From IMG/VR virus record IMGVR_UViG_2737471841_000003: a DNA stretch of 15,937 bases. The stretch is one strand, 5' to 3'. The notes beneath the pieces are model-generated. The model saw nothing but the letters and a program-made list of their open reading frames with translations, made no database searches and had not been told where the DNA came from. Position 1 is the first letter of the stretch. Each line of letters starts with the position of its first letter. The stretch comes from a virus (Duplodnaviria; Heunggongvirae; Uroviricota; Caudoviricetes). A program made the translations under genes and the position numbers. Positions 118 through 15,937 of this stretch are shown here, one piece after another.

Positions 118-2256
118 ATGAGCAACAAAATCGTAGGTGAGATCACAAACGTCATTGGCTTTCAGACTGACAAACGAAGTTATGATCAAGTCAAAGCTGA
201 CATGCGCAAGCTAACCACTACGTGGAACCAGTGCGCTGACAAGATGAAAACGCCAGCACTGGAAAAGATGAAACAGGTAAACCAACAGTTGAGAAAACAG
301 CGTGATCTCCTGAGAGAGATTAAAGCGGCCCAAAGCGGTGTAACGGGTGTTCCCCGTGTCGGTGGAGGTCCGGCAGGCCTGGCAAGACCAAAAACAGGCA
401 ATACCCGCCAGATTTATAACAGGGTGAGGAAACAACAGGCAGCGGAGGCAAGGAGATTAGCCAACGAGGCAAGACGCCAGGGAATATTACAGGCACAAGC
501 TACCAGAGACTCCGCAAGAATTACCTCCACCTTCCAGCCTTCCACAGTCGATAAATACAGAAAACAAATCAGCGACCTGCAAGCCCAGCGGCCCAACATG
601 CCAGCCGCTGAATTTAATGCCCGTATGGGCAAACTTATGATTGACATGAAGAATCATGAAAAATCATTAATTCACTGGGACAAGGTGTTATCCAAAACAT
701 CAAGCACGCTTAAAAGGTTTAACTCTGGACTGAATACAGCGATTAAAGGCCTGGGATTCGCTGCCACGGCGCTGGGTGGGATGATTTATAAATCTTTCCA
801 GGTATCAGCACAGAATAACCGCGCTTATTACGGCTTACTTGCTCAAAATTCAGATGACAAAGCTCTTACCAAAGACCAGATGAATTTTGTGGATCAGATG
901 TCCGATAAATACGGCCTTTCGCTAATGGACGCACAAATGGATTATATGAAGTTCAGAGGGGCGACTAAGGCAACGATGGACGAATCCACAGCAAGGGGAT
1001 TGTTTGAAGCTACTACCATCAAAGGTACAACTGCAGGTACTAACGCACAAGGGATGAGCTTAGCGTTTAAAGCCCTTGAACAGATGAGTTCTAAAGCCTC
1101 GGTTTCCATGGAAGAATTGCGGCAACAGCTCGGCGATCACATTCCGGGTGCGGTTCAGGATTTCTATAAAGCGTGGAAGGAAACCGAAAACAAATCAGAA
1201 GCGACCTATAAGGATTTCGAGAAAGCGGTCAAGGCAGGCAATGTTCAGTTAGAAAAACTTGCTCCCTCCCTGATTAAAATCTGGTCAGTGGCTGAGGGTA
1301 CTGAGGCATTTGCTCAGGCAATGCAACAGCCAGAGAAGGAACTCCAGAGACTGAAAAACACTATGGATAAGGCCGCGATCAGCTTCATGGGTGTAATTGA
1401 CCCCACAGACGGCGTTATTTCAGTATCTGAATCTCTGAGCTACCTGTTCCGTGATATTAAGGCGGCTTTCGGTGAGGCAGATTTTAAAGCAATGGGTGAA
1501 CTGGTAGGTAAATTCCTGTATGAACTGCAATACAGGTTCTGGAGATTCTACTACGACACCGGGGAACCTTTCATGCAGAAGCTGAACGGTTTGTTGGGTG
1601 AGACTACCGATGAAAAGGTAAACACCATTTTTAAAGTGCTAAGTGAGTTGGTAAAACTCAAAGTTGCCATTATGGGGCTATCTGCAGCGACAAATGCAGC
1701 TAAAGCTATCTATACACTTAAATCTGCAATTGAGGCTTTATCGGGCGCATCTACCACGGCAGCGTCCACCGCAGGTAACAGAGGGAACGGCGTAACCGAT
1801 CTACCTTTACCAAAAGGCAACAACCTCAAAAACAGTGCTCTGGTTGAAAATGTCTTACAGAACTATGATGAGGCACAAGCCAAATGGAGGCGGGAACATC
1901 CCGAGGGTAGCGTAGATGTTACGTCTGTAAGAAGCTGGATACCTAAACCGCTTTTAGACTGGTATGACACAGCCGCAGCCACACCGGGCAAATTACCAGA
2001 ATGGATGGGTGGTATCCCGTGGAGGCCAACACCTACCATCAACACCTCACAGGCGCTGCCTATGCCGCAGATGAGTCCTGCATTCATTCAACAGGCTGGC
2101 GTAAACCCTGCTCTGAATATCCACACAGAGGGTGAATTACGAGGCGATATCAACGTTAAGGTCGATATGATGAATCAGGATGTTTATGTGGACCAAAGGA
2201 TTGATGCTAAAATCGATGATTATGAAACGCGCCAACTAAACCTGTTAGCTAGGTAA
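118..2256 (+). CDS. 712-aa virion-type protein, possibly tail tape measure protein
   Basis: ATG at 118 preceded by GAGGG (108-112). Long uninterrupted ORF with a coiled-coil-like, Q/K/R-rich N-terminal third, a hydrophobic segment (GLGFAATALGGMIY) and a segment (SVSMEELRQQLGDHIPGAVQDF) that resembles tape-measure core regions from memory. Followed directly by an intrinsic terminator. The function is inferred, not searched. Confidence 0.45.
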   Translation: MSNKIVGEITNVIGFQTDKRSYDQVKADMRKLTTTWNQCADKMKTPALEKMKQVNQQLRKQRDLLREIKAAQSGVTGVPRVGGGPAGLARPKTGNTRQIYNRVRKQQAAEARRLANEARRQGILQAQATRDSARITSTFQPSTVDKYRKQISDLQAQRPNMPAAEFNARMGKLMIDMKNHEKSLIHWDKVLSKTSSTLKRFNSGLNTAIKGLGFAATALGGMIYKSFQVSAQNNRAYYGLLAQNSDDKALTKDQMNFVDQMSDKYGLSLMDAQMDYMKFRGATKATMDESTARGLFEATTIKGTTAGTNAQGMSLAFKALEQMSSKASVSMEELRQQLGDHIPGAVQDFYKAWKETENKSEATYKDFEKAVKAGNVQLEKLAPSLIKIWSVAEGTEAFAQAMQQPEKELQRLKNTMDKAAISFMGVIDPTDGVISVSESLSYLFRDIKAAFGEADFKAMGELVGKFLYELQYRFWRFYYDTGEPFMQKLNGLLGETTDEKVNTIFKVLSELVKLKVAIMGLSAATNAAKAIYTLKSAIEALSGASTTAASTAGNRGNGVTDLPLPKGNNLKNSALVENVLQNYDEAQAKWRREHPEGSVDVTSVRSWIPKPLLDWYDTAAATPGKLPEWMGGIPWRPTPTINTSQALPMPQMSPAFIQQAGVNPALNIHTEGELRGDINVKVDMMNQDVYVDQRIDAKIDDYETRQLNLLAR

Positions 2257-2900: not shown

Positions 2901-3728
2901 TTATGGGTATACTACTCCTGCACTTTCCATTGCACTATCTACATAGGCTTTAGTTCTGGGAGACATGGGGGCATTACCCTTAGCTGCGTCACCCACATTC
3001 GACTCTTTAGACTTATCGTTCACAATGCCCTTATTCTTGGGTGGAGATTTCTTCGGATCAGAGAAAATTGTGGCTTCCACCATTTTAGTTTTGAAGGTCC
3101 TGAACTCCTGGAGAGTGATATCAAAGAGAATGGCCTCACCTTCGGTGTTCTTTTTGCTGGCACGCATCGAGGTAATGATAAAATTCTCATAGACATCTTC
3201 TTCTGTGACCAACGAGATTAATTGGCGTCTATCTATACATTCATTAACCGCCGCCAATGCCGCCGCCATCCTTCCACTTTCGCGGGGGGCTTCTGGATCT
3301 GTGTTACGGTCAATGTAGTTTGCCTTCCGGTACATCTGGGGAGAGGTAGTCACCCTGGCGGTGAAAGATATTTTGGTATCTTTGATCACGGCATGATCTG
3401 AAATAGTCACACCATCTTCTACAGCAAAATCTGTTTTCTCTATATCTCTGGTGACTTCATAATCGGTAATGCAGTCGAAGATAAGGCAAATGTTATCGGT
3501 GTAGTTAAATTCCTGTAAGCGATAATCCTGACCATGACCATTCAGGCCGGAAATTATCATGGTGAATTGTGCATCAGCCTGAGCTTTTTCTGCATTTAAG
3601 AATTTACCTTCATGCTCAACGCCCAATTCATCCTGGCTATAAATCCTTTCCCCAGTCTTCCAGTCCCTGCGACCTTCTGAACCATAGGAAACATCTTCGT
3701 TAATAACTACTTTATTGCTATTCATCAT
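2901..3728 (-). CDS. 275-aa acidic hypothetical protein; no domain recognised (could be a minor virion protein or an accessory gene)
   Basis: ATGATG start at 3728-3723 preceded by AAGGGGA. It begins 15 nt after the stop of the 53-aa HTH ORF, so the two are probably co-transcribed. TAA stop at 2903-2901. I see no Walker, HNH or PD-(D/E)xK motif. Confidence 0.7.
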   Translation of the reverse strand: MMNSNKVVINEDVSYGSEGRRDWKTGERIYSQDELGVEHEGKFLNAEKAQADAQFTMIISGLNGHGQDYRLQEFNYTDNICLIFDCITDYEVTRDIEKTDFAVEDGVTISDHAVIKDTKISFTARVTTSPQMYRKANYIDRNTDPEAPRESGRMAAALAAVNECIDRRQLISLVTEEDVYENFIITSMRASKKNTEGEAILFDITLQEFRTFKTKMVEATIFSDPKKSPPKNKGIVNDKSKESNVGDAAKGNAPMSPRTKAYVDSAMESAGVVYP

Positions 3729-5460: not shown

Positions 5461-5913
5461 TAATGGACCAGGTGCATAATCCAGAGCACGAAGATTATTC
5501 TCTGGTCATTCGTCTGTCGAGGTGATTTAAATGTGAAGTGAATCAGGCATTACTGCCTCAATCCATATAATAAAACCTCCCCCTAGCCCAGAGAGAGGCC
5601 TTATTATTTACTAGGATATATGAATGACTGATTTCAGTCTGGCAGATTCGCTAATAGCTCACCGCCTGGCACTTATTATCGCCTTCATTAGATCACCACA
5701 AATAATGTCGGCTATGGGAGAATGTAACCCGCTCCCAGTTGTTCACAGTACAACCAGACTTTTTACTGGAGAAAGTAATATCCACTCGTATAAATATTAC
5801 CTTCTTTAAAGGCCCTCGCTACGGTGGAAAGAAGAGGTAGCACAGAACAACCAGCAAAGACCTTTAAAGAAGTACGCCCAGCATCAAGGGGAAAATGATG
5901 AAAAAGCTCTGAG

Positions 5914-5942
5914 CTTCCGGGCGTTGACAAGTACAGGAGAAC
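5914..5942 (+). promoter_or_regulatory. Near-consensus sigma70 promoter (TTGACA, 17-bp spacer, TATTAT; TG immediately upstream of the -10)
   Basis: TTGACA at 5914-5919, TATTAT at 5937-5942, TG at 5935-5936. Confidence 0.45.
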
Positions 5943-6018
5943 ACTGTATTATCCAATAATCGGTGAGATGTAGGTGAGATAACTCGAAAGGTGTAACCAT
6001 GAAAGTATCTACATCATA

Positions 6019-6095: not shown

Positions 6096-6142
6096 TTTCT
6101 CGATCAAACAATTGAAAAAACTATTGACTGAGGCGTTAGAAT
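6096..6142 (+). promoter_or_regulatory. Promoter for the homing-endonuclease-like gene: 13-bp upstream box TTTCTCGATCAAA, then -35 TTGAAA and -10 TAGAAT (19-bp spacer)
   Basis: The box at 6096-6108 is identical to 14751-14763, which sits in the same position relative to the consensus promoter at 14768. -35 at 6112-6117, -10 at 6137-6142. The spacer is longer than optimal. Confidence 0.35.
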
Positions 6143-6182
6143 GTGATACGGTTCACCACAAATGGTAAGTGGAGGGTGCGAT

Positions 6183-7013
6183 ATGAAAGAGAGAAAACAG
6201 GCTTTAGCTAAAACAACAGAGCAGTTCATCGCTGAGGCAAGGAAAGTGCATGGTGATAAGTACGATTATTCGAAAGTTGAATACGTGAATATGCGCACTG
6301 AGGTTTGTATCATTTGCCCAATACATGGGGAGTTCACACAAAGACCAGAGAACCATCTTCGCGGTAACAGAGGAAAGGGGTGTGGTTGCCCTATTTGTAA
6401 ACCTTGGAGAAAACGCCTGACACGAGAAGAGTTCGAAAGGAGGGTAAAAGAGGTACACGGTGATAACCTGGATGTTTCACAGTTCGATTATAAAAACGTT
6501 CACACAGAGGGTATTGTTAAGTGCAACAGGTGCGGCATGACGTTCTCGATACAGGCACAAGCGATTATCCTTAGAAATTCTGATGGTAGTCTTCTAGGCG
6601 GTTGCCCTGTGTGTGACCATCTACACAGAGACGCGGAATATGTTTATTTGGCGCTGGATGATCCACACTTTCCGACGAGATTTAAGATCGGGGTAACAAG
6701 CAACCCACAGGACAGATTGATAACTTTGAAGTGTAGAACACCTTTCAGGGTGTTTATGAAATGTTGTTTCAAAGTAGGAAAAGTGAAGGCGCGGAGGCTG
6801 GAGTACTTCCTGCACAACTTCTACAACTTCTGCAATTGTGGTTATGAATCAAGAAAGGACTTTCAGGGTGCAACAGAGTGGTTTTATTACCTGCAAAGTA
6901 AAGTAGGGGTGAAGAGGGTGCTCAAGATGTTAGTAAAACTGGTAAACGCCAGGAGCTACAACCGCCACTACATAAAGCATAAAAAGCCAACGTTTAAACG
7001 CACTTTGTTTTAA
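6183..7013 (+). CDS. Homing-endonuclease-like protein: two N-terminal Zn-ribbon repeats plus a C-terminal T5orf172 (GIY-YIG-like) domain
   Basis: Start moved to ATG 6183 (GGAGGG SD at 6171-6176); the track start at 6162 lacks an SD. Two tandem repeats of HGDKYDYSKVEY...C.ICP.HGEF.Q.P..HL.G.GC..C, then YVYLALDDPHFPTRFKIGVTSNPQDRL...EYFLH...ATEWFYY, which matches the T5orf172 pattern as I remember it. Confidence 0.65.
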   Translation: MKERKQALAKTTEQFIAEARKVHGDKYDYSKVEYVNMRTEVCIICPIHGEFTQRPENHLRGNRGKGCGCPICKPWRKRLTREEFERRVKEVHGDNLDVSQFDYKNVHTEGIVKCNRCGMTFSIQAQAIILRNSDGSLLGGCPVCDHLHRDAEYVYLALDDPHFPTRFKIGVTSNPQDRLITLKCRTPFRVFMKCCFKVGKVKARRLEYFLHNFYNFCNCGYESRKDFQGATEWFYYLQSKVGVKRVLKMLVKLVNARSYNRHYIKHKKPTFKRTLF

Positions 7014-7064
7014 TGGTGGGCCAGGGATGGTTATTGACTCTCAATCATTATTTTAAAAAAGATG

Positions 7065-7093
7065 TTGACTACCACACGGTAAAAGTGTATAAA
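7065..7093 (+). promoter_or_regulatory. Near-consensus sigma70 promoter (TTGACT, 17-bp spacer, TATAAA)
   Basis: TTGACT at 7065-7070, TATAAA at 7088-7093, about 40 nt upstream of the 7131 ORF. Confidence 0.5.
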
Positions 7094-7130
7094 GGGCCTA
7101 AAGAAAGAGAAGTGGCAAAGGAGGTAAAAA

Positions 7131-7250
7131 ATGTTCAGGCTGATGGTGAATGTCCTGGCGATAATCTTCGGGTTAGTGCTCTTTCTGATGGCCTGGAGCG
7201 TTATCTTTGAAGTAGTGGATATAGTGATGGCGATGTTAATGATTAAATAA
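7131..7250 (+). CDS. 39-aa hydrophobic single-TM peptide (MFRLMVNVLAIIFGLVLFLMAWSVIFEVVDIVMAMLMIK); not in the ORF track
   Basis: ATG at 7131 preceded by AGGAGG (7119-7124) at 6-nt spacing and by the 7065 promoter. TAA at 7248-7250. The overlapping track ORF 7013..7210 in another frame has no SD and covers the promoter. Confidence 0.4.
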   Translation: MFRLMVNVLAIIFGLVLFLMAWSVIFEVVDIVMAMLMIK

Positions 7251-7266
7251 CGCAGGAGGCAAGATC

Positions 7267-7329
7267 ATGAAACATTGGGAAGTGATTGCACTGTTCATCA
7301 TAATGTTTGTGATGTGCATCGAGTTTTAA
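7267..7329 (+). CDS. 20-aa hydrophobic peptide (MKHWEVIALFIIMFVMCIEF); not in the ORF track
   Basis: ATG at 7267 preceded by AGGAGG (7254-7259) at 7-nt spacing. TAA at 7327-7329. It is very short, so this is tentative. Confidence 0.3.
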   Translation: MKHWEVIALFIIMFVMCIEF

Positions 7330-7364
7330 CATTAGTCGATCAATATATTGAAGAGGTGACTACT

Positions 7365-7916
7365 ATGAAAACTATCAAAACTATCGCCGCTGTGGTCCTG
7401 GCAATGTTTGTGGGCAATGCTAATGCCGCCCTGGTGATCACAGACCAAGACATTGAAGACCACATGGAGACAATGGAGGTTTACTACCAGGCTGAGGATA
7501 TTGATTGTGAGATCTGGAGCAAGATGTTCACGAAAGGGGTAATTGAAGGTAACGACAAGTTCAGGCACGGTATCCGTGTTCACAAAGACCTCACAATTGT
7601 TGCCATGAAAGCTAAATCGGAGTTCTACAACAAATACGCAGGGGAGGTTGTCAAATCTGGCGCAAGTAAAGGATACAGCAAGGAGAGAGTAGATCAGATT
7701 AGAGATGTTTACATCGGTGCTTACATCGGTGCGGCCGAGATGAAATCTCGCGTAAACAGCAAGTTCGGCAAAGCCGCTGATCTTAACTCTGTAGCTAAAA
7801 AGAGAGCAGAAGCCGATCATTGGTTCAATTTCTGTGTGAAAGTGAAAGAAGAATATCCGGTCGTATTGTTCAACGAGTGGTTAGCTATAGCACAGCTGGC
7901 AGAAGATGATTTTTAA
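7365..7916 (+). CDS. Secreted (periplasmic) protein with Sec signal peptide, 183 aa
   Basis: Start moved to ATG 7365 (GAGGTG SD at 7353-7358). N-terminus MKTIKTIAAVVLAMFVGNANA/AL has n-, h- and c-regions with a predicted cleavage after ANA. There is no Cys at +1, so it is not a lipoprotein. The track start at 7275 lacks an SD. Confidence 0.6.
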   Translation: MKTIKTIAAVVLAMFVGNANAALVITDQDIEDHMETMEVYYQAEDIDCEIWSKMFTKGVIEGNDKFRHGIRVHKDLTIVAMKAKSEFYNKYAGEVVKSGASKGYSKERVDQIRDVYIGAYIGAAEMKSRVNSKFGKAADLNSVAKKRAEADHWFNFCVKVKEEYPVVLFNEWLAIAQLAEDDF

Positions 7917-7946
7917 CCGGGGACGATCATCGACTCAAAAAAGTGA

Positions 7947-7975
7947 TTGACAACGGAGGTGAGATCCGGTATAGT
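7947..7975 (+). promoter_or_regulatory. Near-consensus sigma70 promoter (TTGACA, 17-bp spacer, TATAGT)
   Basis: TTGACA at 7947-7952, TATAGT at 7970-7975, upstream of the 8011 gene. Confidence 0.5.
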
Positions 7976-8010
7976 TCACCACATAGAGAAGAGATACGGA
8001 GGGCAGCAAG

Positions 8011-8391
8011 ATGAAAACTTTCAATTGGGTTAAACCACAGATGTTACGTCGCGCCAATAACCACGGTGAGGGTGTACGCCACCACAACGACGCACCTGCA
8101 CCGGACATGAAGAAGGCACGCAAAGTGATCAATCTTCGTCAGGACGCGGCTATCGCTCGCAACCTGAAAGCAGAAGCGAAAAACCGTAACCCGTTGGAGG
8201 CAATTCTTGTTGCCCTGGTCAATGACCATGCAGCTCATTTCCGTCATTTCAATGGCATCAACCAGTACCAGATGGCAGAAGCCAACCGTAAAGAAGAAGA
8301 GCGGATCCTGGCTGGACTGGTACACGTTGAGATTGAACCTGAACCGGAACCGGAGGAAATTCATTGGGACCTCTGGAAAATGGCAGCTTAG
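8011..8391 (+). CDS. Hypothetical early protein (126 aa)
   Basis: ATG at 8011 with GGAGGG SD at 7998-8003. Contains a PEPEPE stretch. Function unknown. Confidence 0.6.
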   Translation: MKTFNWVKPQMLRRANNHGEGVRHHNDAPAPDMKKARKVINLRQDAAIARNLKAEAKNRNPLEAILVALVNDHAAHFRHFNGINQYQMAEANRKEEERILAGLVHVEIEPEPEPEEIHWDLWKMAA

Positions 8392-8452
8392 TCCACAGAG
8401 TGGATTTCACAGAGTGAAACCTGATAACAGGCAGCTTGAGGAGGCTTGAATC

Positions 8453-8917
8453 ATGAAAATTTTCAGTATTGAACATTACGAAGACAAAATTGAAGAGCTG
8501 GAAAGACTGGCTGAGATTGCAGATTATCGCGCGGGGTACGCCGCTGGACTTGCGGAAGTTCGGGAAAAAATACTTAAAAAATTCCACAGCTTGTACTATG
8601 TCCTGGCGGTTGCTGAGCAAGAACAAGATGAGGAGCTGTACGAGTACACGTCGTGCCGTATCCTGGAAATGGCGGGTGTGTACGGCATAATCAAGGCGGG
8701 AGAGGTGATCTCAGACGAAGAGATTGCGAAGAGACTTCGTAAACGCATCGAAAACGCATACTTTGAAGCGATCTACTATACGAAAAAAAGCACGGAGCTG
8801 TATAAACGCATAACTGCGGCGACGAAAGTTGTCACTCAGCTACAGAAAGTAAAAATCTTCAAACTGAAAGCGGCGTTGGCTATCGGTAAAATGTTTTTCC
8901 CACATCGTTTCAATTGA
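8453..8917 (+). CDS. Hypothetical early protein (154 aa)
   Basis: ATG at 8453 with GAGGAGG SD. Function unknown. Confidence 0.65.
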   Translation: MKIFSIEHYEDKIEELERLAEIADYRAGYAAGLAEVREKILKKFHSLYYVLAVAEQEQDEELYEYTSCRILEMAGVYGIIKAGEVISDEEIAKRLRKRIENAYFEAIYYTKKSTELYKRITAATKVVTQLQKVKIFKLKAALAIGKMFFPHRFN

Positions 8918-8945
8918 TTAAATAATAAACAGAGGAGACTGTAAA

Positions 8946-9314
8946 ATGAGTTACGAAAACTGCTGTTTCTGTGTGGAAGATGTGCCGCCAGTCATTCTGG
9001 AGCGTCACGGTGTGAAAACGTATCTGCCGATGATTCTGATGTTCGAGCATTTCCTCGATCATGGTGATGACGGTTTTTATGTCGGTTATAGTGAGGACGA
9101 TTTCCCTCCTGACTTGCTGAAAGAGTTGGAAGAAAAAGGCATCATTGAAGTATTTGATCAAACTGACGTGGATAATGGTGTGTGGGTAAGGGTTAAAAAA
9201 GAGATTCACATTGAACGTCTGCAACTTGCGGCAGAAGTCCAGGGCCTTGAGATTCTCGACATGAGCGACTACCTCAAACAACTGGACGAAGCATACAAGG
9301 CGCACGATTTATAG
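8946..9314 (+). CDS. Hypothetical acidic early protein (122 aa)
   Basis: ATG at 8946 with AGAGGAG SD. Tightly spaced after the preceding gene. D/E-rich. Confidence 0.65.
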   Translation: MSYENCCFCVEDVPPVILERHGVKTYLPMILMFEHFLDHGDDGFYVGYSEDDFPPDLLKELEEKGIIEVFDQTDVDNGVWVRVKKEIHIERLQLAAEVQGLEILDMSDYLKQLDEAYKAHDL

Positions 9315-9327
9315 GGGAGACACACAG

Positions 9328-9642
9328 ATGAATAAAGACGTGATTGAACTGCTGGAACAACTGAACAAGGCCGCTGAGTATATCCTGGCCGATGTGAAGG
9401 TCCTGGATGGTCACTTGTTGCTGGCGAGCAAGTCAGCCACACAGGAAGGAAGGGACAGGGCTGTCGAGCTATACGTTCAGGATGCTGCACATCTTATAAA
9501 CAAATGGTTGCCTGATGTGGGTGTCGAGGTGACAAACTACGCAGAAGCAACGGCGGCGCATATGGTGCTGATGCATCTGGCAATTGATAGTTACCGTAGT
9601 AACATGTTAGCAATGCTGGACTTCATGAAGGCTAAAAATTAA
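9328..9642 (+). CDS. Hypothetical early protein (104 aa)
   Basis: ATG at 9328 with GGGGAG SD, 14 nt after the preceding stop. Confidence 0.6.
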   Translation: MNKDVIELLEQLNKAAEYILADVKVLDGHLLLASKSATQEGRDRAVELYVQDAAHLINKWLPDVGVEVTNYAEATAAHMVLMHLAIDSYRSNMLAMLDFMKAKN

Positions 9643-9704
9643 TCGTACTCGATCAATAGTTCAATTTTACTTATGAATTGTGGAGAGCATAAGAGGTTCC
9701 AACA

Positions 9705-10226
9705 ATGAAAACTGAACTCAAACATGAAATTCTAAACGCTTTTAACAACCGTATCGAGGCCATAGTGGATGGTCAACCTGGCGGGATGTTCTTTGTGGAG
9801 GAAGCCATAGAGCTGGCTAAAGCGGAGGAAGCAGTAGAGAGAATACTCAACATCCCACACAGTGATCAATGTCTGGTAGATAGGTATCTATACGGCTTCA
9901 TGCGACTGGTCCGGCATTATTGCGAGGTGCCTGTGGACCATCATTTTATCAGTATGATCTACGCCGATGCTTCTGACTTCTTCTACAGGCTAGATCACAG
10001 AATAGACGAAATGATTGTTGTGTTACTGGCGGGATCTGATGACGAAAGGTTGTTAGACGTAGAACCTGATGAACTGGTGAAAAAACTTATTGAGCGTGTT
10101 TATCGGGAAATGGAGGCAGACGTAGAGGCAGCGGGTGAAGATGGAAGAATGCGGCAGAAGCTGGAGGCCGCGTATAAGGCCAGGCCGAAGGATGATGATG
10201 ACGATACGGAAGGAATCCCATTCTGA
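9705..10226 (+). CDS. Acidic early protein (173 aa) with an SSB-like C-terminal tail (...KDDDDDTEGIPF)
   Basis: ATG at 9705 with AAGAGG SD. Strongly acidic overall. The C-terminal codons were checked directly: GAC GAT ACG GAA GGA ATC CCA TTC TGA. Confidence 0.65.
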   Translation: MKTELKHEILNAFNNRIEAIVDGQPGGMFFVEEAIELAKAEEAVERILNIPHSDQCLVDRYLYGFMRLVRHYCEVPVDHHFISMIYADASDFFYRLDHRIDEMIVVLLAGSDDERLLDVEPDELVKKLIERVYREMEADVEAAGEDGRMRQKLEAAYKARPKDDDDDTEGIPF

Positions 10227-10277
10227 GCTATTGGGGCCGTCACTGGCCCCGCTTACCAACTAATCGGAGAGCATAAG

Positions 10278-10553
10278 ATGAAACTCAAACTTATCGAAAG
10301 TCAGCTGAACATGTTCTTTAAGATGGCAAGTGTGATCATTGTGGACGGTGAACAATTCGCGGGTCCAGTGCCACACAGTAGCATCGTTTTAGATATCAAC
10401 AGAGAGGCCCTTAAATGCGTTGTGGAGGCCGTATTTAATCAGGATGTAAAAGTGTATAGGCTTATGGAGTTTGAGCTACAGGAGCGCGATTTACGCATCA
10501 TAGAGCGACATTTGAAGGCTGAGCAAGCCGCAGAAGAGTTGAACCTGGATTAA
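10278..10553 (+). CDS. Hypothetical early protein (91 aa)
   Basis: ATG at 10278 with GGAGAG SD. Confidence 0.6.
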   Translation: MKLKLIESQLNMFFKMASVIIVDGEQFAGPVPHSSIVLDINREALKCVVEAVFNQDVKVYRLMEFELQERDLRIIERHLKAEQAAEELNLD

Positions 10554-10662
10554 GGGGGTGTATACCCCGAACATTGTGAGAGGTGTGAGATGGCTAAACA
10601 AATACTTTCAATTGTTCCACTGTGGAAACTGAATCATAAATTCGTAAAAAAATGGTAAACCA

Positions 10663-11013
10663 GTGCTGTTTACATACCTTGATGCGCTGGTCTTCGGTTA
10701 CATAGCACGAGCTAACTATGGGGGCAAGTGGTTCAACTTCGTAATGAAGAATGCAATCTACGACCTCTATACAAGCGAGAAGGAGATAACGCACAGCGTT
10801 GAAAAACTGGTTATGTTAAGACTTATCAAAATAATGCCGGGTGAAAGTTTGCCTAACTGCCACATGGTGGCGCAAGTCACTCATAAGGAATTGGAAGACA
10901 CGATCAATAGGTATATCGAGCGTGAAAGAATGTCTTGCGCGATGATCGACCTTGATGAAGAGAGGAGGAAACAATTCCAGGGTAATGATGAATGGGAAGA
11001 TTGTCCTTTTTAA
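10663..11013 (+). CDS. Hypothetical protein (116 aa from a GTG start; start uncertain), C-terminus ...NDEWEDCPF
   Basis: The ORF is open from 10648. The first start codon is GTG at 10663 with no clear SD; an alternative ATG at 10744 has a weak SD. It is preceded by a 22-codon uORF (10590-10658, SD GAGAGGTG) that ends in an A7 run. Confidence 0.45.
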   Translation: MLFTYLDALVFGYIARANYGGKWFNFVMKNAIYDLYTSEKEITHSVEKLVMLRLIKIMPGESLPNCHMVAQVTHKELEDTINRYIERERMSCAMIDLDEERRKQFQGNDEWEDCPF

Positions 11014-11030
11014 TGTAGGGGGGTGGCAAA

Positions 11031-12008
11031 ATGACTACAGAAGTGATGATCCAGATTTTCGAATCTGATTTAAATAATGATGGTAACTTAGTCCCGGTTG
11101 TTAACGCCCGTGAGTTTTACGAAGCGCTTGGGATGCGAAAAGATTATGGAAATTGGATCAGGTGGCATCTTCGGAAATTTGAAAAAAATCGGGACTTTAT
11201 TACTTTTATCGATAAGTCGGGAGAACATCCGCGTCATAACTATTTTATCACTTTGGACACTGCAAAGCACATATGCAGGGTGAGCCAACGCCAGGAAGGT
11301 GAGCAGTTGCTACAGTATTTAATTAAAGTTGAAAAAAGATACCGTTTAGTACTGGACCCACAACCACAGATTCCTGTTTACACACAGTCACAGATTCCTG
11401 TTTACACACAGTCACAGATTCCTGTTTACACACAGACGGAACCTGAACCGTTGCCAGGAACACCGGAACATTTTGCCCGTGCATTTACGGAGGCTTACCA
11501 ACAGATATACGGGGCAACAGATCAGCAGCCAGTCATTGAGCACAATACGGAACCTGTGGTTCCTTGTTGGGGAGCTGGGTCTAATCAGAGCCTCGAGGTC
11601 CAGGATGTGCAGGAAGTACGACCGCCAGCACCTGTGCTGGGGTATTACAATCCTTGCCCGGACAACAAAATCAACATGAAAGGCTTAAAAGAATACCTGA
11701 GCAATGAACGCCTGATCAAGTACCTCATTAAAAAATTCAACATTGAAAATGAGATTTATGATTATGGTTACATAAATGTGAAAGGGAAAGCTGAGTCGGA
11801 GATTGTGTACGATAAACGTAAAACGCTGGCGATCTTACATGCCGCTTACGCTTTGAGTACTAGAGTAAACGCCACACAGAGAGAGTTTATGGGGATAGTA
11901 TTCACGATGTACAGGGTGTTAAGAGACACACATTATGATAAGGACATGTACGATACAGCTTACACTCTTCTTGAAGAGGATATAAACAAATTGTATAAAA
12001 TTGATTGA
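11031..12008 (+). CDS. Antirepressor-like protein with N-terminal AntA-type domain (325 aa)
   Basis: ATG at 11031 with a G-rich SD. The N-terminus (VVNAREFYEALGMRKDYGNWIRWHLRKFEKNRDFITF...YFITLDTAKHI) matches the AntA/AntB antirepressor N-terminal pattern as I remember it. Contains a triplicated QIPVYTQS repeat. Confidence 0.65.
   Translation: MTTEVMIQIFESDLNNDGNLVPVVNAREFYEALGMRKDYGNWIRWHLRKFEKNRDFITFIDKSGEHPRHNYFITLDTAKHICRVSQRQEGEQLLQYLIKVEKRYRLVLDPQPQIPVYTQSQIPVYTQSQIPVYTQTEPEPLPGTPEHFARAFTEAYQQIYGATDQQPVIEHNTEPVVPCWGAGSNQSLEVQDVQEVRPPAPVLGYYNPCPDNKINMKGLKEYLSNERLIKYLIKKFNIENEIYDYGYINVKGKAESEIVYDKRKTLAILHAAYALSTRVNATQREFMGIVFTMYRVLRDTHYDKDMYDTAYTLLEEDINKLYKID
11367..11438 (+). repeat. 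Three tandem 24-bp direct repeats (CAGATTCCTGTTTACACACAGTCA) inside the antirepressor-like gene
   Basis: Units at 11367-11390, 11391-11414 and 11415-11438; the third differs in its last bases. In frame, encoding QIPVYTQS x3. Confidence 0.9.
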
Positions 12009-12086
12009 GCATCTATACTCGATCACAACTCAACAATAAAGACGGAGAGTCGAGAGCATGACTCTCCTCAACCCCGGAGGCCCAAC

Positions 12087-12362
12087 ATGTATTACTACGA
12101 TTGCAAAGACCCGATTCTGGCTGAACGTAACCGCCTGGCTAATGAGATCGCCCAACAGGCAAAAGAGAAAAAAGCCCAACAGCGTATGGAGCTTGGAAAA
12201 GAGATTTACAGACTCCACACAGACGGCTACACAATGGAATGTATAGCCAAAAAGCTGGGAATGTCTGAACCAACAGCCTACAGACTGCAACGGGCATATC
12301 TGAAAGCTAACCCGCACCTCAAAGTGTTCTCGGGGCGTGTTGCGGCACGGGGTCGTAGTTAA
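12087..12362 (+). CDS. Small HTH DNA-binding protein (91 aa), resolvase/sigma-region-4-like HTH
   Basis: ATG at 12087 with GGAGG SD (12076-12080). The segment GYTMECIAKKLGMSEPTAYRLQRAY is HTH-like. Its stop lies 10 nt before the first operator-like palindrome. Confidence 0.6.
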   Translation: MYYYDCKDPILAERNRLANEIAQQAKEKKAQQRMELGKEIYRLHTDGYTMECIAKKLGMSEPTAYRLQRAYLKANPHLKVFSGRVAARGRS

Positions 12363-12371
12363 CACACACTA

Positions 12372-12408
12372 GGGACAAAATGTCCTACCTACCCGGGACA
12401 AAATGTCC
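12372..12408. promoter_or_regulatory. Two copies of a 14-bp palindromic operator-like site, GGGACAAAATGTCC, 23 bp centre to centre
   Basis: Exact copies at 12372-12385 and 12395-12408. Each is a dyad (GGACA-N3-TGTCC). Confidence 0.5.
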
Positions 12409-12409
12409 A

Positions 12410-12419
12410 CCCCCCCCCC
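12410..12419. repeat. Homopolymeric C10 tract
   Basis: Ten consecutive C at 12410-12419, directly after the second operator copy. Confidence 0.9.
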
Positions 12420-12449
12420 GGCAATATGTGATTCCCGGAAGACACATGT

Positions 12450-12486
12450 TTGTACAAATTGTAGTCACTGATTGTACAGATTGTAG
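12450..12486. repeat. Two direct repeats TTGTACA(A/G)ATTGTAG spaced 22 bp
   Basis: 12450-12464 and 12472-12486. Each has a TGTACA palindromic core. Confidence 0.6.
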
Positions 12487-12490
12487 CACT

Positions 12491-12573
12491 ATACCGGTTT
12501 TCCGATAGAGCTATACCGGATTTCCGGTAGAGGTATACCGCTTTTCCGGTATAGGTATACCGGATTTCCGGTA
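12491..12573. repeat. Iteron array: four 17-bp dyad-symmetric sites (ATACCGG-N-TTTCCGGTA) at exactly 22-bp spacing; putative replication origin or partition/regulator binding array
   Basis: Sites at 12491-12507, 12513-12529, 12535-12551 and 12557-12573. Arms TACCGGA and TCCGGTA are reverse complements. Followed by an AT-rich stretch (12574-12622), the same layout as the lambda origin (four dyad iterons plus an AT-rich region). Confidence 0.6.
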
Positions 12574-12622
12574 ACTATTAGATCAATCTATTACATCAAG
12601 AAAAAAGATCACTTATTATATT

Positions 12623-12645
12623 AAGGGCCTTGCCCTTTTTGTTGT
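12623..12645 (+). terminator. Terminator-like hairpin (AAGGGC, loop CTT, GCCCTT, then TTTGTTG)
   Basis: 6-bp GC-rich stem with a 3-nt loop, then a T-run, at the end of the AT-rich region. It would terminate read-through from the 12087 gene across the iterons. Confidence 0.35.
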
Positions 12646-13845
12646 GGGATTGATTGGTGGGATTGATCTTACTGATAGTATAATACTCCACCAATCAACC
12701 CTAAGTTGTGGGAGAGTACGGAGCAGACTGCGACTACAGAGCAGGCTGAGAAGTACTCAATGGGTGTAAGGGATTAAGGGACCCACACACATTTCCACAC
12801 ACAGAGTAAAGCCAGAGGCTTTATGAAGTGTAAGAGTAATGCCTAAAGAGTCGAAGCACACTTTAGGCTATATTGTGTGGGAGGTATCTGTACATAGTAC
12901 AGAGTACTCCCCATTATGTGGGGGCAATCCTGCCCGTAAGGGCAGCTCATGTGATTCGCAGCCGTAAGCTGAACTGCGACGAAGAAGGCTGCAAAGGTTC
13001 TCGGCCCGGTTACAATTACGCAACAATTTTATAATCTATCGTTAACCTATACCACTATCACAATTTCTATAGTTGAGTCCTACTATCCCCTACACCATAA
13101 AATCAATTTTAAGCCACACTCAGCCTACGGCTTCACGGTAAAACGTGTTTTAACCCACATAATGGCCCCTGTAGTGAGCTAAATGGTATACACCGCTATA
13201 ATTGGGTTACTTATGAGATAACCTCGTTAGAATCGATTCTAGAGCGTTTTAGAGCTTGAAATCCATCCTGCAAACTGCAAGATGATGATTCTATCGGGGA
13301 AGAATTTTTTTCCTTCCCGTAAGTCGTACCGTAGAGCAGATTTGCTTTACGAGCTTTCTCACACCTCAGGCCTCTGGCCTTCATGGAGTATCGGAGATAC
13401 GACTCACCGCATATACTCTGTTTTCAGTGCTACCCTGATCGCATCCGACCCTTTTCAGAGGCACTTTTAACCGCATTCTGGCACGCTACAACAGCAAGAA
13501 ATAGGCTGATTCTACTGATTTTACCTTACAATACAGGTACATAGCAGAAGGGCAGGAATATACTGTGAGAATGGTTGCTAGACCGGGCCTTCTTCTCTCT
13601 GTGTGTGCATTCTGAAACCGTTATGTAGTCGAGTATATAACGACTGGTCAGACCAGTGCAGGGCTGAAAATGATGATCGGTCACCACAATTATGGGCAAA
13701 TTACTGTACATTCATACAGTAGTTATACATAAAGAATATGCATCGATTGCTCTTTAGGCACAGATGTTATAATGTAACAATTAATTTAGTTTACCTCGGT
13801 AATCACTGTGTGGACATGTCACGCAACTAAACTAAATCCGAAGAG

Positions 13846-13854
13846 TTATCCACA
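13846..13854 (+). promoter_or_regulatory. Consensus DnaA box TTATCCACA
   Basis: Exact 9-mer match to the R-type DnaA box, single copy. Nearby are an 8-bp palindrome GACATGTC (13812-13819) and a 10-bp inverted repeat, ATTTAGTTTA (13783-13792) with TAAACTAAAT (13827-13836). Confidence 0.3.
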
Positions 13855-14687
13855 GATTGGGGGTAAATCATCAACATAGTCTGTAGCCTCTGACAGAGAG
13901 CAAAAAGAAAGGCCTTTTATGTGATCAATATCACGTTTCTGGGGTAGTTCTGGAGGCTTAGGTGCGGGGAAGTAGTGCGTACTGACACCAGAGGCCGCAT
14001 AAAACAAGGGGATTTAACATAATGGATCTTGTATACACCACACCTCACCACGTTGAAATCTGATCTTACTTTGAGGCTATCTGCCAACAGAATCCGCGTA
14101 CATGCACCATAACCTGTATGTGGGATGCAATAATAAAGGCCCTGGCGGCCCACAGGCCGCATGAATACTGGGCTTGTCATAGATATGGGCCTGTATCGCT
14201 ATGTAGATGCGGGATGACCTGTAAGGGTGTGGCAGGTGGCAGGGGCTGGAGGGCACGGTACAGCACAGCTAATGGGTGAGGCCCCAGATATTTGAGAATC
14301 ACTCTCACCTGAGAATAATTATCAGTAACTCCTGCCTAGTACCACCCCTGTAGGTAAGGTTGATCATTGCCCACATTGCTGGTATACTTTATCTGTGGGA
14401 AAGTAACGCCGTTACTTCCGCGAACGCTGTGCGTGATGTGTGGGAGAATGTGCCTGCGTAATAAAAAAATTGAAAATTACTCATCTGTCAACATTTCAAT
14501 GACGTATGTCAATCATTTATGCTATGTGTTTACTTTATAATCAATCACTTACGAATTTAATGAAATAAATGCATTTAAATAGGGTGAAACTCAAATCTAA
14601 CCCCTGAAACTGTGTTGATAAAGGGGCGTGAAGCCCGGCGTAGGTAACTCGTTACCCGCCAGTGTTATTGATAATTCTCATTTACGT

Positions 14688-14716
14688 TTGACAATGCAAT
14701 CCCAATGGTGTATAAT
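14688..14716 (+). promoter_or_regulatory. Perfect consensus sigma70 promoter (TTGACA, 17-bp spacer, TATAAT)
   Basis: TTGACA at 14688-14693 and TATAAT at 14711-14716, in an AT-rich upstream context. Confidence 0.6.
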
Positions 14717-14750
14717 AGACTATAAGGGGTAAGATAGAATCTTTACTCAA

Positions 14751-14796
14751 TTTCTCGATCAAAGGTATTGACAAATGAGAGTAAAGGTGTTATACT
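14751..14796 (+). promoter_or_regulatory. Second tandem near-consensus promoter (13-bp box TTTCTCGATCAAA, then TTGACA, 17-bp spacer, TATACT)
   Basis: Box at 14751-14763, -35 at 14768-14773, -10 at 14791-14796. It lies 80 bp downstream of the 14688 promoter. Confidence 0.6.
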
Positions 14797-14885
14797 TATC
14801 TATAACAGCAAAACTCTACTTTAGAGCCGCTCCATGAGGAGCAAAGCTCCGAAGTGTGATCATAGTCGGTAAATCCCTTACTTAC

Positions 14886-14918
14886 CGGGGGCACTTCTCC
14901 AGCCCCCTCTCTTTTTAA
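14886..14918 (+). terminator. Intrinsic terminator in the leader (GGGGGC, 9-nt loop, GCCCCC, then TCTCTTTTTAA)
   Basis: Stem 14887-14892 pairs with 14902-14907, followed by a T-run at 14908-14916. It is about 110 nt downstream of the predicted start site and about 50 nt upstream of the 14969 start. Confidence 0.5.
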
Positions 14919-14968
14919 CGGTATGGTAAGAAAACATTCTTTATAAGTGATAAAAGAGGTAGTTAATC

Positions 14969-15240: not shown

Positions 15241-15756
15241 ATGAGAGCAGTTTTTGATCAGCTGCCGTGGTGGCTTGATTTTCTCGAAGAACTGGACGGA
15301 AAGAAATTTAAACTGACAAAAGGTGAAGCGAGAGCATTTGCTTGTATTCTTACGTATGCCGCGACATGTGGTAAGATTTTCCCGTCACTCCACACAATAG
15401 CCCTTCATATGGGTTTACGGAGTGAAAAACGAGCGCCGACACAGGCGCATAAAGCGATCAAAGGCCTGGAGGAAAAAGGCCTTATACGTGTTAGCCGTCG
15501 CGCTGGGTGTGGAAACCATTATGAACTAGTTTACACAGCAGATCAACTCTTTGAGATGACAAAGCAACAGAATCCAGACTTGTTCAAAGGCTATGAAGAC
15601 ACGTTCGGAGAAGAGGATAGGGAGAGAGAACAGGCAGGGGATAAACCGAAGAAACATGATACAAAACAGGGGGTTACGTGTCAACATGACAACGGTCAAC
15701 CGGATGATATTCACATAGAAGCGTGTGATCTGGATGCTACTGACATACCATTTTAA
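15241..15756 (+). CDS. HTH_36-type winged-helix DNA-binding protein (phage replication/regulatory type), 171 aa, with SSB-like C-terminus (...DLDATDIPF)
   Basis: ATG at 15241 with AAGGTGG SD. The segment LTKGEARAFACILTYAATCGKIFPSLHTIALHMGLRSEKRAPTQAHKAIKGLEEKGLIRVSRR matches the HTH_36 pattern seen in the N-terminal domains of phage replication proteins. The terminal codons GAC ATA CCA TTT TAA were checked. Confidence 0.7.
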   Translation: MRAVFDQLPWWLDFLEELDGKKFKLTKGEARAFACILTYAATCGKIFPSLHTIALHMGLRSEKRAPTQAHKAIKGLEEKGLIRVSRRAGCGNHYELVYTADQLFEMTKQQNPDLFKGYEDTFGEEDREREQAGDKPKKHDTKQGVTCQHDNGQPDDIHIEACDLDATDIPF

Positions 15757-15824: not shown

Positions 15825-15937
15825 ATGAGTTTAGTTGAAAGATTGAAAAAAATCCTCGCCACAGAAGAGGTAGAGGAAGAGGAAGAAGTAGAGAAGGCGG
15901 CGGATCCTAAGCCTGAGAAGGCTGTGAATACCCAGAG
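15825..15937 (+). CDS. 5' end of a downstream gene (partial; MSLVERLKKILATEEVEEEEEVEKAADPKPEKAVNTQ...)
   Basis: ATG at 15825 with GAGGT SD (15813-15817). The ORF is open to the window end. Confidence 0.5.
   Translation, partial: MSLVERLKKILATEEVEEEEEVEKAADPKPEKAVNTQ

Follow-up and report, generated by a model that had tools for sequence, protein, structure and literature searches.

A free-standing T5orf172 homing-endonuclease-family gene occupies an accessory slot of an apparently extrachromosomal, satellite-like element from Escherichia coli

It has been reported that proteins combining repeated zinc (Zn) fingers of the CapR/DUF723/DUF4379 type with a C-terminal T5orf172 domain constitute a lineage of phage homing endonuclease genes (HEGs) (Barth, Dunham & Seed 2023, PMC10448857). 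Experimental proof of DNA cleavage by the T5orf172 domain comes from Odn, which acts in phage-satellite conflict and whose nuclease activity is lost when the conserved Glu is mutated (PMC8263062), and the Zn finger of CapR was found to bind DNA via its Cys ligands, by electrophoretic mobility shift assays and Cys mutants (PMC8096241). Here we describe a gene of this architecture at positions 6183-7013 of the window, by which we mean the whole stretch of DNA analysed, namely the entire 15,937-bp contig JUDJ01000049.1 of the E. coli assembly GCA_000798295.1. We lean, with a confidence only slightly above even, to the view that it is a free-standing T5orf172 HEG-family gene, carried as a promoter-plus-gene cassette in an accessory slot, whose homing is active or recently active. 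The coding sequence and its domains are as follows.

6183-7013, plus strand: coding sequence of 276 amino acids (aa) for a T5orf172-type homing-endonuclease-family protein, supported by the list of open reading frames (ORFs), profile matches and a database protein
6213-6401, plus strand: Zn-finger module 1 (residues 11-73; ligands C45, H48, C69 and C72), of CapR/DUF723/DUF4379 type, presumed DNA-binding
6420-6620, plus strand: Zn-finger module 2 (residues 80-146; ligands C114, C117, C141 and C144)
6630-6977, plus strand: T5orf172/GIY-YIG-fold nuclease domain (residues 150-265), followed by a disordered basic tail (residues 266-276)

The nuclease domain was recognised by several profiles. Residues 153-241 match Pfam T5orf172 (PF10544, GIY-YIG clan) with 33.6 bits against a cut-off of 20 (E = 6e-8), MUG113 matches the C-terminal domain with 31.1 bits (cut-off 22.3), and PHROG 681 ('endonuclease') matches residues 4-237 with E = 1.6e-34; the domain is predicted by a structure model to adopt the GIY-YIG fold. 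The residues that are invariant in a 29-sequence alignment (Y155, K168, G170, R178, P187, E207, E232 and W233) are all kept in the window protein, and the YVY, KIG.T and EWF motifs coincide with family-invariant positions. A Glu of the window protein is presumably equivalent to I-TevI E75 and Odn E180, and by analogy with Odn we infer that the protein cleaves DNA. An exhaustive search with the C-terminal 133 residues recovered only 33 of 1.8 billion cluster representatives at E <= 1e-3, and the nuclease domain is therefore a rare sub-branch. A word-indexed search with the nuclease domain alone gave no candidates, and a sequence search of the PDB gave chance matches only.

T5orf172 domains also occur in some anti-phage systems, as the first-pass annotation had pointed out, and one could suppose that the protein acts against phages as a defence nuclease of the T5orf172/GIY-YIG type, as an effector either of the bacterial host or of the element itself. 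The nuclease domain did give a weak PADLOC match to the candidate system PDC-S57 (E = 5e-4, and also 3e-3). However, the PADLOC matches extend over nothing but the common fold; partner genes are absent, as are a membrane or sensor domain and the context of a defence island, and the N-terminal modules are of the phage HEG type. Membership of a known anti-phage system was accordingly rejected, the link is weak at this locus, and a defence role appears very improbable.

The N-terminal part of the protein is an internal repeat, in which residues 11-72 and 80-144 are 37% identical (E = 4e-9 in a single comparison). Both modules share (F/E)..(V)HGD..D.S...Y and two metal-ligand pairs, spaced C45-x2-H48 ... 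C69-x2-C72 in the first and C114-x2-C117 ... C141-x2-C144 in the second, and module 1 is predicted with a local confidence score (pLDDT) above 90. In the local Pfam scan, DUF723 was the only one of DUF4379, DUF723 and CapR with any match to the window's modules, and module 2 gave generic Zn-ribbon matches only; a precomputed DUF723 match is recorded for the same 276-aa protein. Paralogues in sister elements, described below, exceed the cut-offs for DUF4379 (43), DUF723 (37) and CapR (33.8), and they align with module 1 with 25 invariant columns inside residues 11-58. DUF4379 is annotated as 'treble clef zinc finger'. By analogy with CapR, the modules of the window protein would bind DNA.

Module 1 is also the part of the gene that resembles phage DNA: it is 73-79% identical to the same module in phage genes, several of which are annotated as HEGs, and the DNA-level likeness to phages is confined to about 100 nt of this module. 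Among T5orf172 genes, module 1 is closest to those in another slot (slot B, below) of sister elements, and module 2 is 82% identical at the DNA level to the third finger module of a 378-aa T5orf172 gene (P0087) in a more distant element, L013, so that the modules have been shuffled at the DNA level. At the protein level, 699 phage records were found by tblastn to carry homologues that are 35-42% identical, and a single genome often has several. By the sequence criteria tested, the window protein is assigned to the T5orf172 HEG lineage of PMC10448857. The first-pass annotation had read the gene at 6183-7013 as encoding tandem Zn-ribbon repeats plus a T5orf172/GIY-YIG-like domain in an architecture typical of phage homing endonucleases; the gene, the nuclease domain and the architecture were borne out, and the repeats proved to be two homologous modules annotated as treble-clef fingers rather than ribbons.

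Relatives of the window were obtained solely via the 90%-identity cluster of its capsid protein in a large protein collection. This cluster has 29 members, and nine of the 15 members listed lie on contigs of 13.8-15.9 kb. The 13 loci taken from it, in E. coli/Shigella assemblies, ENA metagenome assemblies and sequencing-run assemblies, represent nine distinct elements, which together with the window gave ten elements for comparison (relatives are numbered with the prefix L). The features that define the slot of the T5orf172 gene (slot A) and its expression are given below.

5924-5952, plus strand: strong sigma-70-like promoter TTGACA-17-TATTAT (11 of 12 consensus matches), in a region kept in all relatives
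6099-6129, plus strand: left boundary repeat P1, CTCGATCA (6099)-N17-TTGACT (6124-6129); homology ends just past the -35 box
6124-6152, plus strand: putative promoter of the cassette itself, with -35 TTGACT (shared), a 17-nt spacer and extended -10 TGaTACGGT (cassette-specific)
6130-7070, plus strand: 941-bp cassette, missing in the empty-site relative L002; seven relatives have a resolvase cassette of about 630 bp instead, with the same boundaries
6171-6175, plus strand: ribosome-binding site (RBS) GGAGG, 7 nt ahead of the ATG, read from the sequence
7040-7093, plus strand: right boundary repeat P2, CTCAATCA (7040)-N17-TTGACT (7065-7070), then TATAAA after a spacer of 17 nt; promoter for the downstream genes

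The ORF that contains the gene spans 6162-7013, with the stop TAA at 7011-7013. The ATG at 6183 is the likely start, because GGAGG lies 7 nt upstream and because the database protein, named 'GIY-YIG nuclease family protein' by NCBI, and the gene call are the same 276 aa; an alternative start at 6162 was rejected, as it is without an RBS and the database protein begins at 6183. The gene is the first of a rightward gene block (6183-12362) that follows a divergent promoter region, and the promoter at 5924-5952 is likely the main rightward promoter reading into it. The cassette's own promoter at 6124-6152 scored under the threshold of the consensus scan and was proposed from reading the sequence. 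Thus the gene is intergenic, has its own promoter-like elements and RBS, and lies outside any intron or intein, and its cassette sits between two promoters, the empty allele being an intact intergenic promoter.

Slot A holds the T5orf172 gene in one of the ten elements (the window), is empty in two (L002 and L011) and contains a 188-aa serine recombinase in the other seven (the L003 group, L006, L007, the L009 group, L014, L015 and L016). This recombinase combines a Resolvase domain with HTH_8 (a Fis-type helix-turn-helix, HTH) and has its own TTGACA/TATGGT promoter (for example, L009 5359-5925 and L006 6444-7010); it may serve in multimer resolution, inversion or integration, and the window, L002 and L011 are without any recombinase. 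The flanks of slot A are 79-94% identical among the relatives. Homology to every relative extends from 5000 as far as 6128-6132 and is found again from 7041-7053 onwards (7117 in some), and the interval is flanked by imperfect direct repeats of about 32 bp, with copies at 6112 and 7053, 941 bp apart, of which the empty allele retains one. In L002 a single copy of the repeat joins the flanks exactly (...ATTGAAAAAGTTATTGACT|ACCACACAGTAAAAGTGTATAAAGG...), and compared with the L002 allele, the window is thus longer by an insert of 941 bp. Among close relatives there is, in other words, presence/absence polymorphism with conserved flanks and an empty site. Furthermore, identity to the nearest relatives is 93% to the left of the gene and <=85% to its right, a drop which fits the description of 'nucleases at boundaries of exchange' (PMC10448857). 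The first-pass annotation had suggested an insertion hotspot at the head of the early region and proposed a comparison with relatives for presence or absence of the gene. The gene is not universal, slot A holding a resolvase or nothing in nine of nine distinct relatives, and insertion or exchange does occur at identical boundaries; the gene does head the rightward block, but the carrier is a satellite-like circle and not a phage, so that 'rightward operon of a satellite-like element' is a better description than 'phage early region'.

Two octamers recur around the slot. The first, CTCGATCA, has five exact copies in the window, all on the plus strand (6099, 9054, 9648, 12018 and 14754), where 0.49 would be expected on both strands, and one-mismatch copies at 7040 and 7335, also on the plus strand; most copies are intergenic. 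It lies 17 nt ahead of the -35 box in both cassette-flanking promoters and 6 nt ahead of a strong TTGACA-17-TATACT promoter at 14768, and the conserved linker on the right of slot B includes it. Its role may be that of an operator or of a linker prone to recombination. The second, TATTGACT, found at the left junction (6122-6129), recurs at 7032-7039, 18 nt past the stop and directly before P2; direct repeats of 8 bp thus lie on both sides of the gene-specific DNA (6130-7031), an arrangement that could be due to chance or could be the trace of an earlier junction.

A second slot (slot B), located between a 91-aa gene and an HTH gene, behaves similarly, and it is there that other members of the nuclease family are found. 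It contains AntA in the window, L007, L014 and L016, other genes in L015, and T5orf172 genes of 310 aa in L006 and L011 and of 248 aa in L009, the L009 version being without one Zn module; L003 has a 62-aa single-finger remnant. What is swapped in slot B begins exactly at the start codon and ends exactly at a conserved TATACTCGATCA linker. The decayed remnant and the module deletion correspond to the classic HEG life cycle, and this supports the homing interpretation.

On that interpretation, the gene would be transcribed by the host RNA polymerase from the promoter at 5924 and/or from its own TTGACT/TGaTACGGT promoter. The two tandem Zn-finger modules would bind specific DNA and thereby place the C-terminal GIY-YIG-type nuclease to cut nearby. 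If a related element lacking the gene were present in the same cell, the resulting break would be repaired off the gene-bearing copy, with the promoter repeats of about 30 bp and the conserved flanks providing the homology by which the 941-bp cassette would be copied in. In most relatives the incoming cassette would displace the resolvase cassette.

Several results weigh against homing. The same slots exchange non-nuclease genes at the same boundaries (the serine recombinase in slot A, AntA in slot B), and therefore cassette turnover is possible without this nuclease. Since resolvase and AntA swap likewise, the polymorphism cannot be attributed to the nuclease itself as opposed to a general exchange hotspot, and a hotspot alone does not prove endonuclease-driven homing; mobility may instead come from recombination between promoter repeats. 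In addition, the nuclease gene occupies slot A in only one of the ten distinct elements, no target site can be named for the nuclease, and module 1 reached 11.9 bits for DUF723 in the local Pfam scan, below the cut-off of 20.9. The allele is also unique, forming a one-member protein cluster found in this contig only (two samples/sources) among about 15 billion proteins, and its nearest protein relative is <=52% identical; there is therefore no sign of a recent sweep.

The gene could instead be a passive accessory (moron-like) cassette, moved by recombining promoter or linker repeats of co-resident elements, in which case the nuclease would be irrelevant and maybe inactive. The imperfect CTCGATCA-N17-TTGACT repeats that flank the cassette, with one copy left in the empty allele, are what such a process would use, the exchange of resolvase and AntA cassettes at the same boundaries, exact in slot B, is consistent with it, and the allele is rare and looks old. 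However, all invariant residues are intact in a full-length frame, which argues for purifying selection on the nuclease, and the family behaves in phages as multi-copy mobile genes (the 699 records above; PMC10448857). A double-strand break would moreover strongly stimulate repeat-mediated exchange, so that the passive and homing models are not exclusive. As an explanation that dispenses with the nuclease altogether, we regard the passive cassette as rather unlikely, and we continue to prefer a homing gene.

Annotation of the window with PHROG and Pfam identified a tape-measure protein (118-2256, plus strand), and the minus strand was found to encode a Dit-like protein of the baseplate, a capsid protein of the Phage_cap_E type and a decoration-like protein of 107 aa; terminase, portal, protease and integrase were found among none of the window's genes by the same annotation. 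The rightward block led by the T5orf172 gene is made up of small genes, including those for AntA and an HTH protein, and it is followed by a 2.6-kb ORF-poor region (12363-14968) with 22-bp iterons; a short Rep-like protein is also encoded. Contigs of this element family are circular permutations of each other, and L007 and L011 are continuous across the two ends of the window, which is therefore a complete or nearly complete circle of about 15.9 kb. A small gene before the tape-measure gene (about 70-80 aa in relatives) spans the contig ends, with 15825-15937 joined to 1-106, and a contig break inside this gene is consistent with circularity. The layout recurs in NZ_CP178698.1, a finished circular plasmid of 13.3 kb from E. 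coli, whose tape-measure, Dit, capsid and Rep proteins are 28-48% identical to their counterparts. Furthermore, a putative E. coli satellite (NC_018658.1 4140183-4165443; Table S6 of PMC10448857) shares the Dit-like (27%) and decoration-like (35%) proteins, a 49-aa protein (67%) and a small recombinase (31%). From its gene content and layout, the carrier is thus apparently an extrachromosomal, satellite-like circular element and not a phage proper. When the whole window was compared by megablast, neither phages nor complete E. coli genomes gave a match, and plasmids gave only one of 100 bp, in AntA; in 50,697 phage records, tblastn detected nothing similar to the capsid protein, and single-protein scans of viral contigs with the capsid protein and a 183-aa neighbour found no relatives.

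The gene could also encode a protein derived from an HEG and domesticated by the element for use in conflict or regulation, either as a nuclease directed against a helper phage or against rival satellites or plasmids, or as a CapR-like DNA-binding regulator of helper promoters or of its own promoters with the nuclease domain retained. The replicon is satellite-like (capsid, decoration, Dit and tape-measure proteins, and no terminase or portal) and distantly resembles the E. coli satellites of PMC10448857. An intact T5orf172 gene is present in four of nine relatives that cover the slots, as well as in L013, a high frequency for a pure parasite; HEG-derived domains have been co-opted repeatedly in phage-satellite conflict, as with CapR (PMC8096241) and Odn (PMC8263062); and the gene lies between two promoters with a common upstream motif, a plausible operator. 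In addition, the nearest phage homologues of the Dit-like protein are in FV3/FFH2-related phages, some of which, such as YP-6, bear T5orf172 genes themselves. On the other side, the protein has neither RepA_N nor any other borrowed specificity domain, its binding modules being of the generic HEG type, most relatives can do without the gene, which alternates with unrelated ones, the element has no known helper phage, and the allele is indistinguishable from ordinary phage HEGs. Domestication seems to us unlikely on balance. The more specific proposal, that the nuclease is the satellite's weapon or regulator, a satellite-encoded counterpart of Odn by which the helper phage or competing satellites would be cut or repressed, is likewise doubtful; if it were true, slot A would represent an allelic 'choice' between recombinase and nuclease.

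As to possible helpers, the Dit-like protein (2901-3728, minus strand) has its nearest phage homologues, 48-49% identical over 80% of its length, in Escherichia phages of about 135-140 kb (FFH2, FV3 and YP-6). FV3/FFH2-related phages are possible helper phages.

Other features of the element were noted in passing. Immediately downstream of the cassette, the following gene has a strong RBS.

7131-7250, plus strand: 39-aa hydrophobic protein, kept in relatives (69% identical in L013)

A 65-aa ORF (7013-7210) that overlaps it is probably not a gene, since promoter P2 lies within it. Where the 2.6-kb ORF-poor region starts, an iteron-like array of about four 22-bp repeats (CTATACCGGATTTCCGGTAGAG) occupies 12450-12600, with more short repeats on both sides; this region is probably the replication origin. 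The Rep-like gene (15241-15756) encodes 171 aa, which is short in comparison with the 240-382 aa found in relatives. The AntA-like gene (11031-12008) contains a perfect tandem repeat of 24 bp x 3 at 11365-11435, giving a repeated 8-residue peptide. In L003 (ENA k141_228590, a 60-kb metagenome contig; locus 1-790 and 12369-17204), colinearity with the window is lost between window positions 12756 and 12907. The adjoining 3 kb of L003 had no match in complete E. coli genomes and encode one small phage-family protein only, with no informative PHROG match; the contig may reflect integration of the element, a replicon of larger size or a chimera of the assembly. Neither Rfam families nor tRNA genes were detected when the window was scanned for them.

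To the left of slot A, on the minus strand, a stretch of about 450 nt (window 5566-6017) lies between a promoter (6052-6024) and an intrinsic terminator (5596-5566), where its end is formed by a 19-bp stem with a U-run behind it, and it precedes the decoration-like and capsid genes. It contains invariant blocks of up to 35 nt (5813-5847), whereas identity in this DNA is otherwise 79-94%. In the consensus computed with RNAalifold there are 120 pairs, nine of them with compensatory double changes, with 99.1% of cells paired; there are 22 compensatory cells as against 0-5 in slid controls, and the observed covariation was reached by no shuffle or slid control. Many G-U pairs of the consensus fold are compatible with the minus strand only, and no Rfam family matched the stretch. 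We consider it a candidate for a novel structured leader RNA or non-coding RNA, possibly concerned with antitermination or processing control of the structural genes, and it is much more unusual than the T5orf172 gene.

Taken alone, the gene is one more, rather divergent, member of the T5orf172 HEG lineage, already annotated as a GIY-YIG nuclease. Its value lies in offering a clean natural example, in which an exact empty site, a resolvase allele with identical boundaries, slot-B paralogues and a decayed remnant are found on one tiny replicon, and for this reason homing and promoter-repeat cassette exchange could easily be tested against each other by experiment. It also indicates that HEG-type nucleases circulate in satellite-like elements, besides their presumed helper phages.

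Among described systems, the phage T5orf172 HEGs (ICP1 gp165, gp174 and others, in Vibrio, Klebsiella, Salmonella and Escherichia phages; PHROG 681; PMC10448857) are closest. They have the same domain order as the window protein, which is 35-42% identical to them over about 80% of its length, and they are alike in their free-standing intergenic position, variable presence and shuffling of repeat modules at the DNA level. Unlike them, the window gene is on a satellite-like circle of about 15.9 kb, in a slot that otherwise holds a serine recombinase, and its nuclease domain comes from the rare sub-branch. The slot-B genes of sister elements (310 aa in L006 and L011, 248 aa in L009) and the 378-aa P0087 of L013 belong to the same family with the same architecture, at 45-52% identity, but they occupy another genomic slot, have 2-4 Zn modules as against two in the window protein, and exceed the Pfam cut-offs for DUF4379, DUF723 and CapR, whereas the window's modules remain below that for DUF723 in the local scan.

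Odn (ICP1 Gp88, the origin-directed anti-satellite nuclease; PMC8263062) shares the T5orf172 domain with its conserved Arg and Glu. Its specificity domain is a RepA_N copied from the satellite, whereas the window protein uses generic Zn fingers, and Odn is phage-encoded, whereas the carrier of the window gene is satellite-like. For the window protein, a chimera of the Odn kind was rejected, since the protein has no RepA_N match and its N-terminus consists of Zn-finger modules. CapR of the Vibrio PLE satellites (PMC8096241) is satellite-encoded and has a homologous Zn-finger module, for which DNA binding was shown in CapR; however, it is a 15.5-kDa DNA-binding protein without a nuclease domain, while the window protein retains an intact one, and the 62-aa slot-B remnant of L003 is the closer formal parallel to it. 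Finally, I-TevI and the T4 Seg proteins resemble the window protein in joining a modular nuclease to a tethered DNA-binding domain, and the Seg genes are also free-standing. The domain order is opposite, with the nuclease N-terminal in I-TevI and C-terminal in the window protein, and the DNA-binding modules differ; compared with canonical GIY-YIG, the window protein has KIG for YIG and is without the helix bearing His/Tyr, as was noted for Odn (PMC8263062). What is new here is the carrier, a satellite-like circle, together with the allelic relation to a serine recombinase and the clean empty site.

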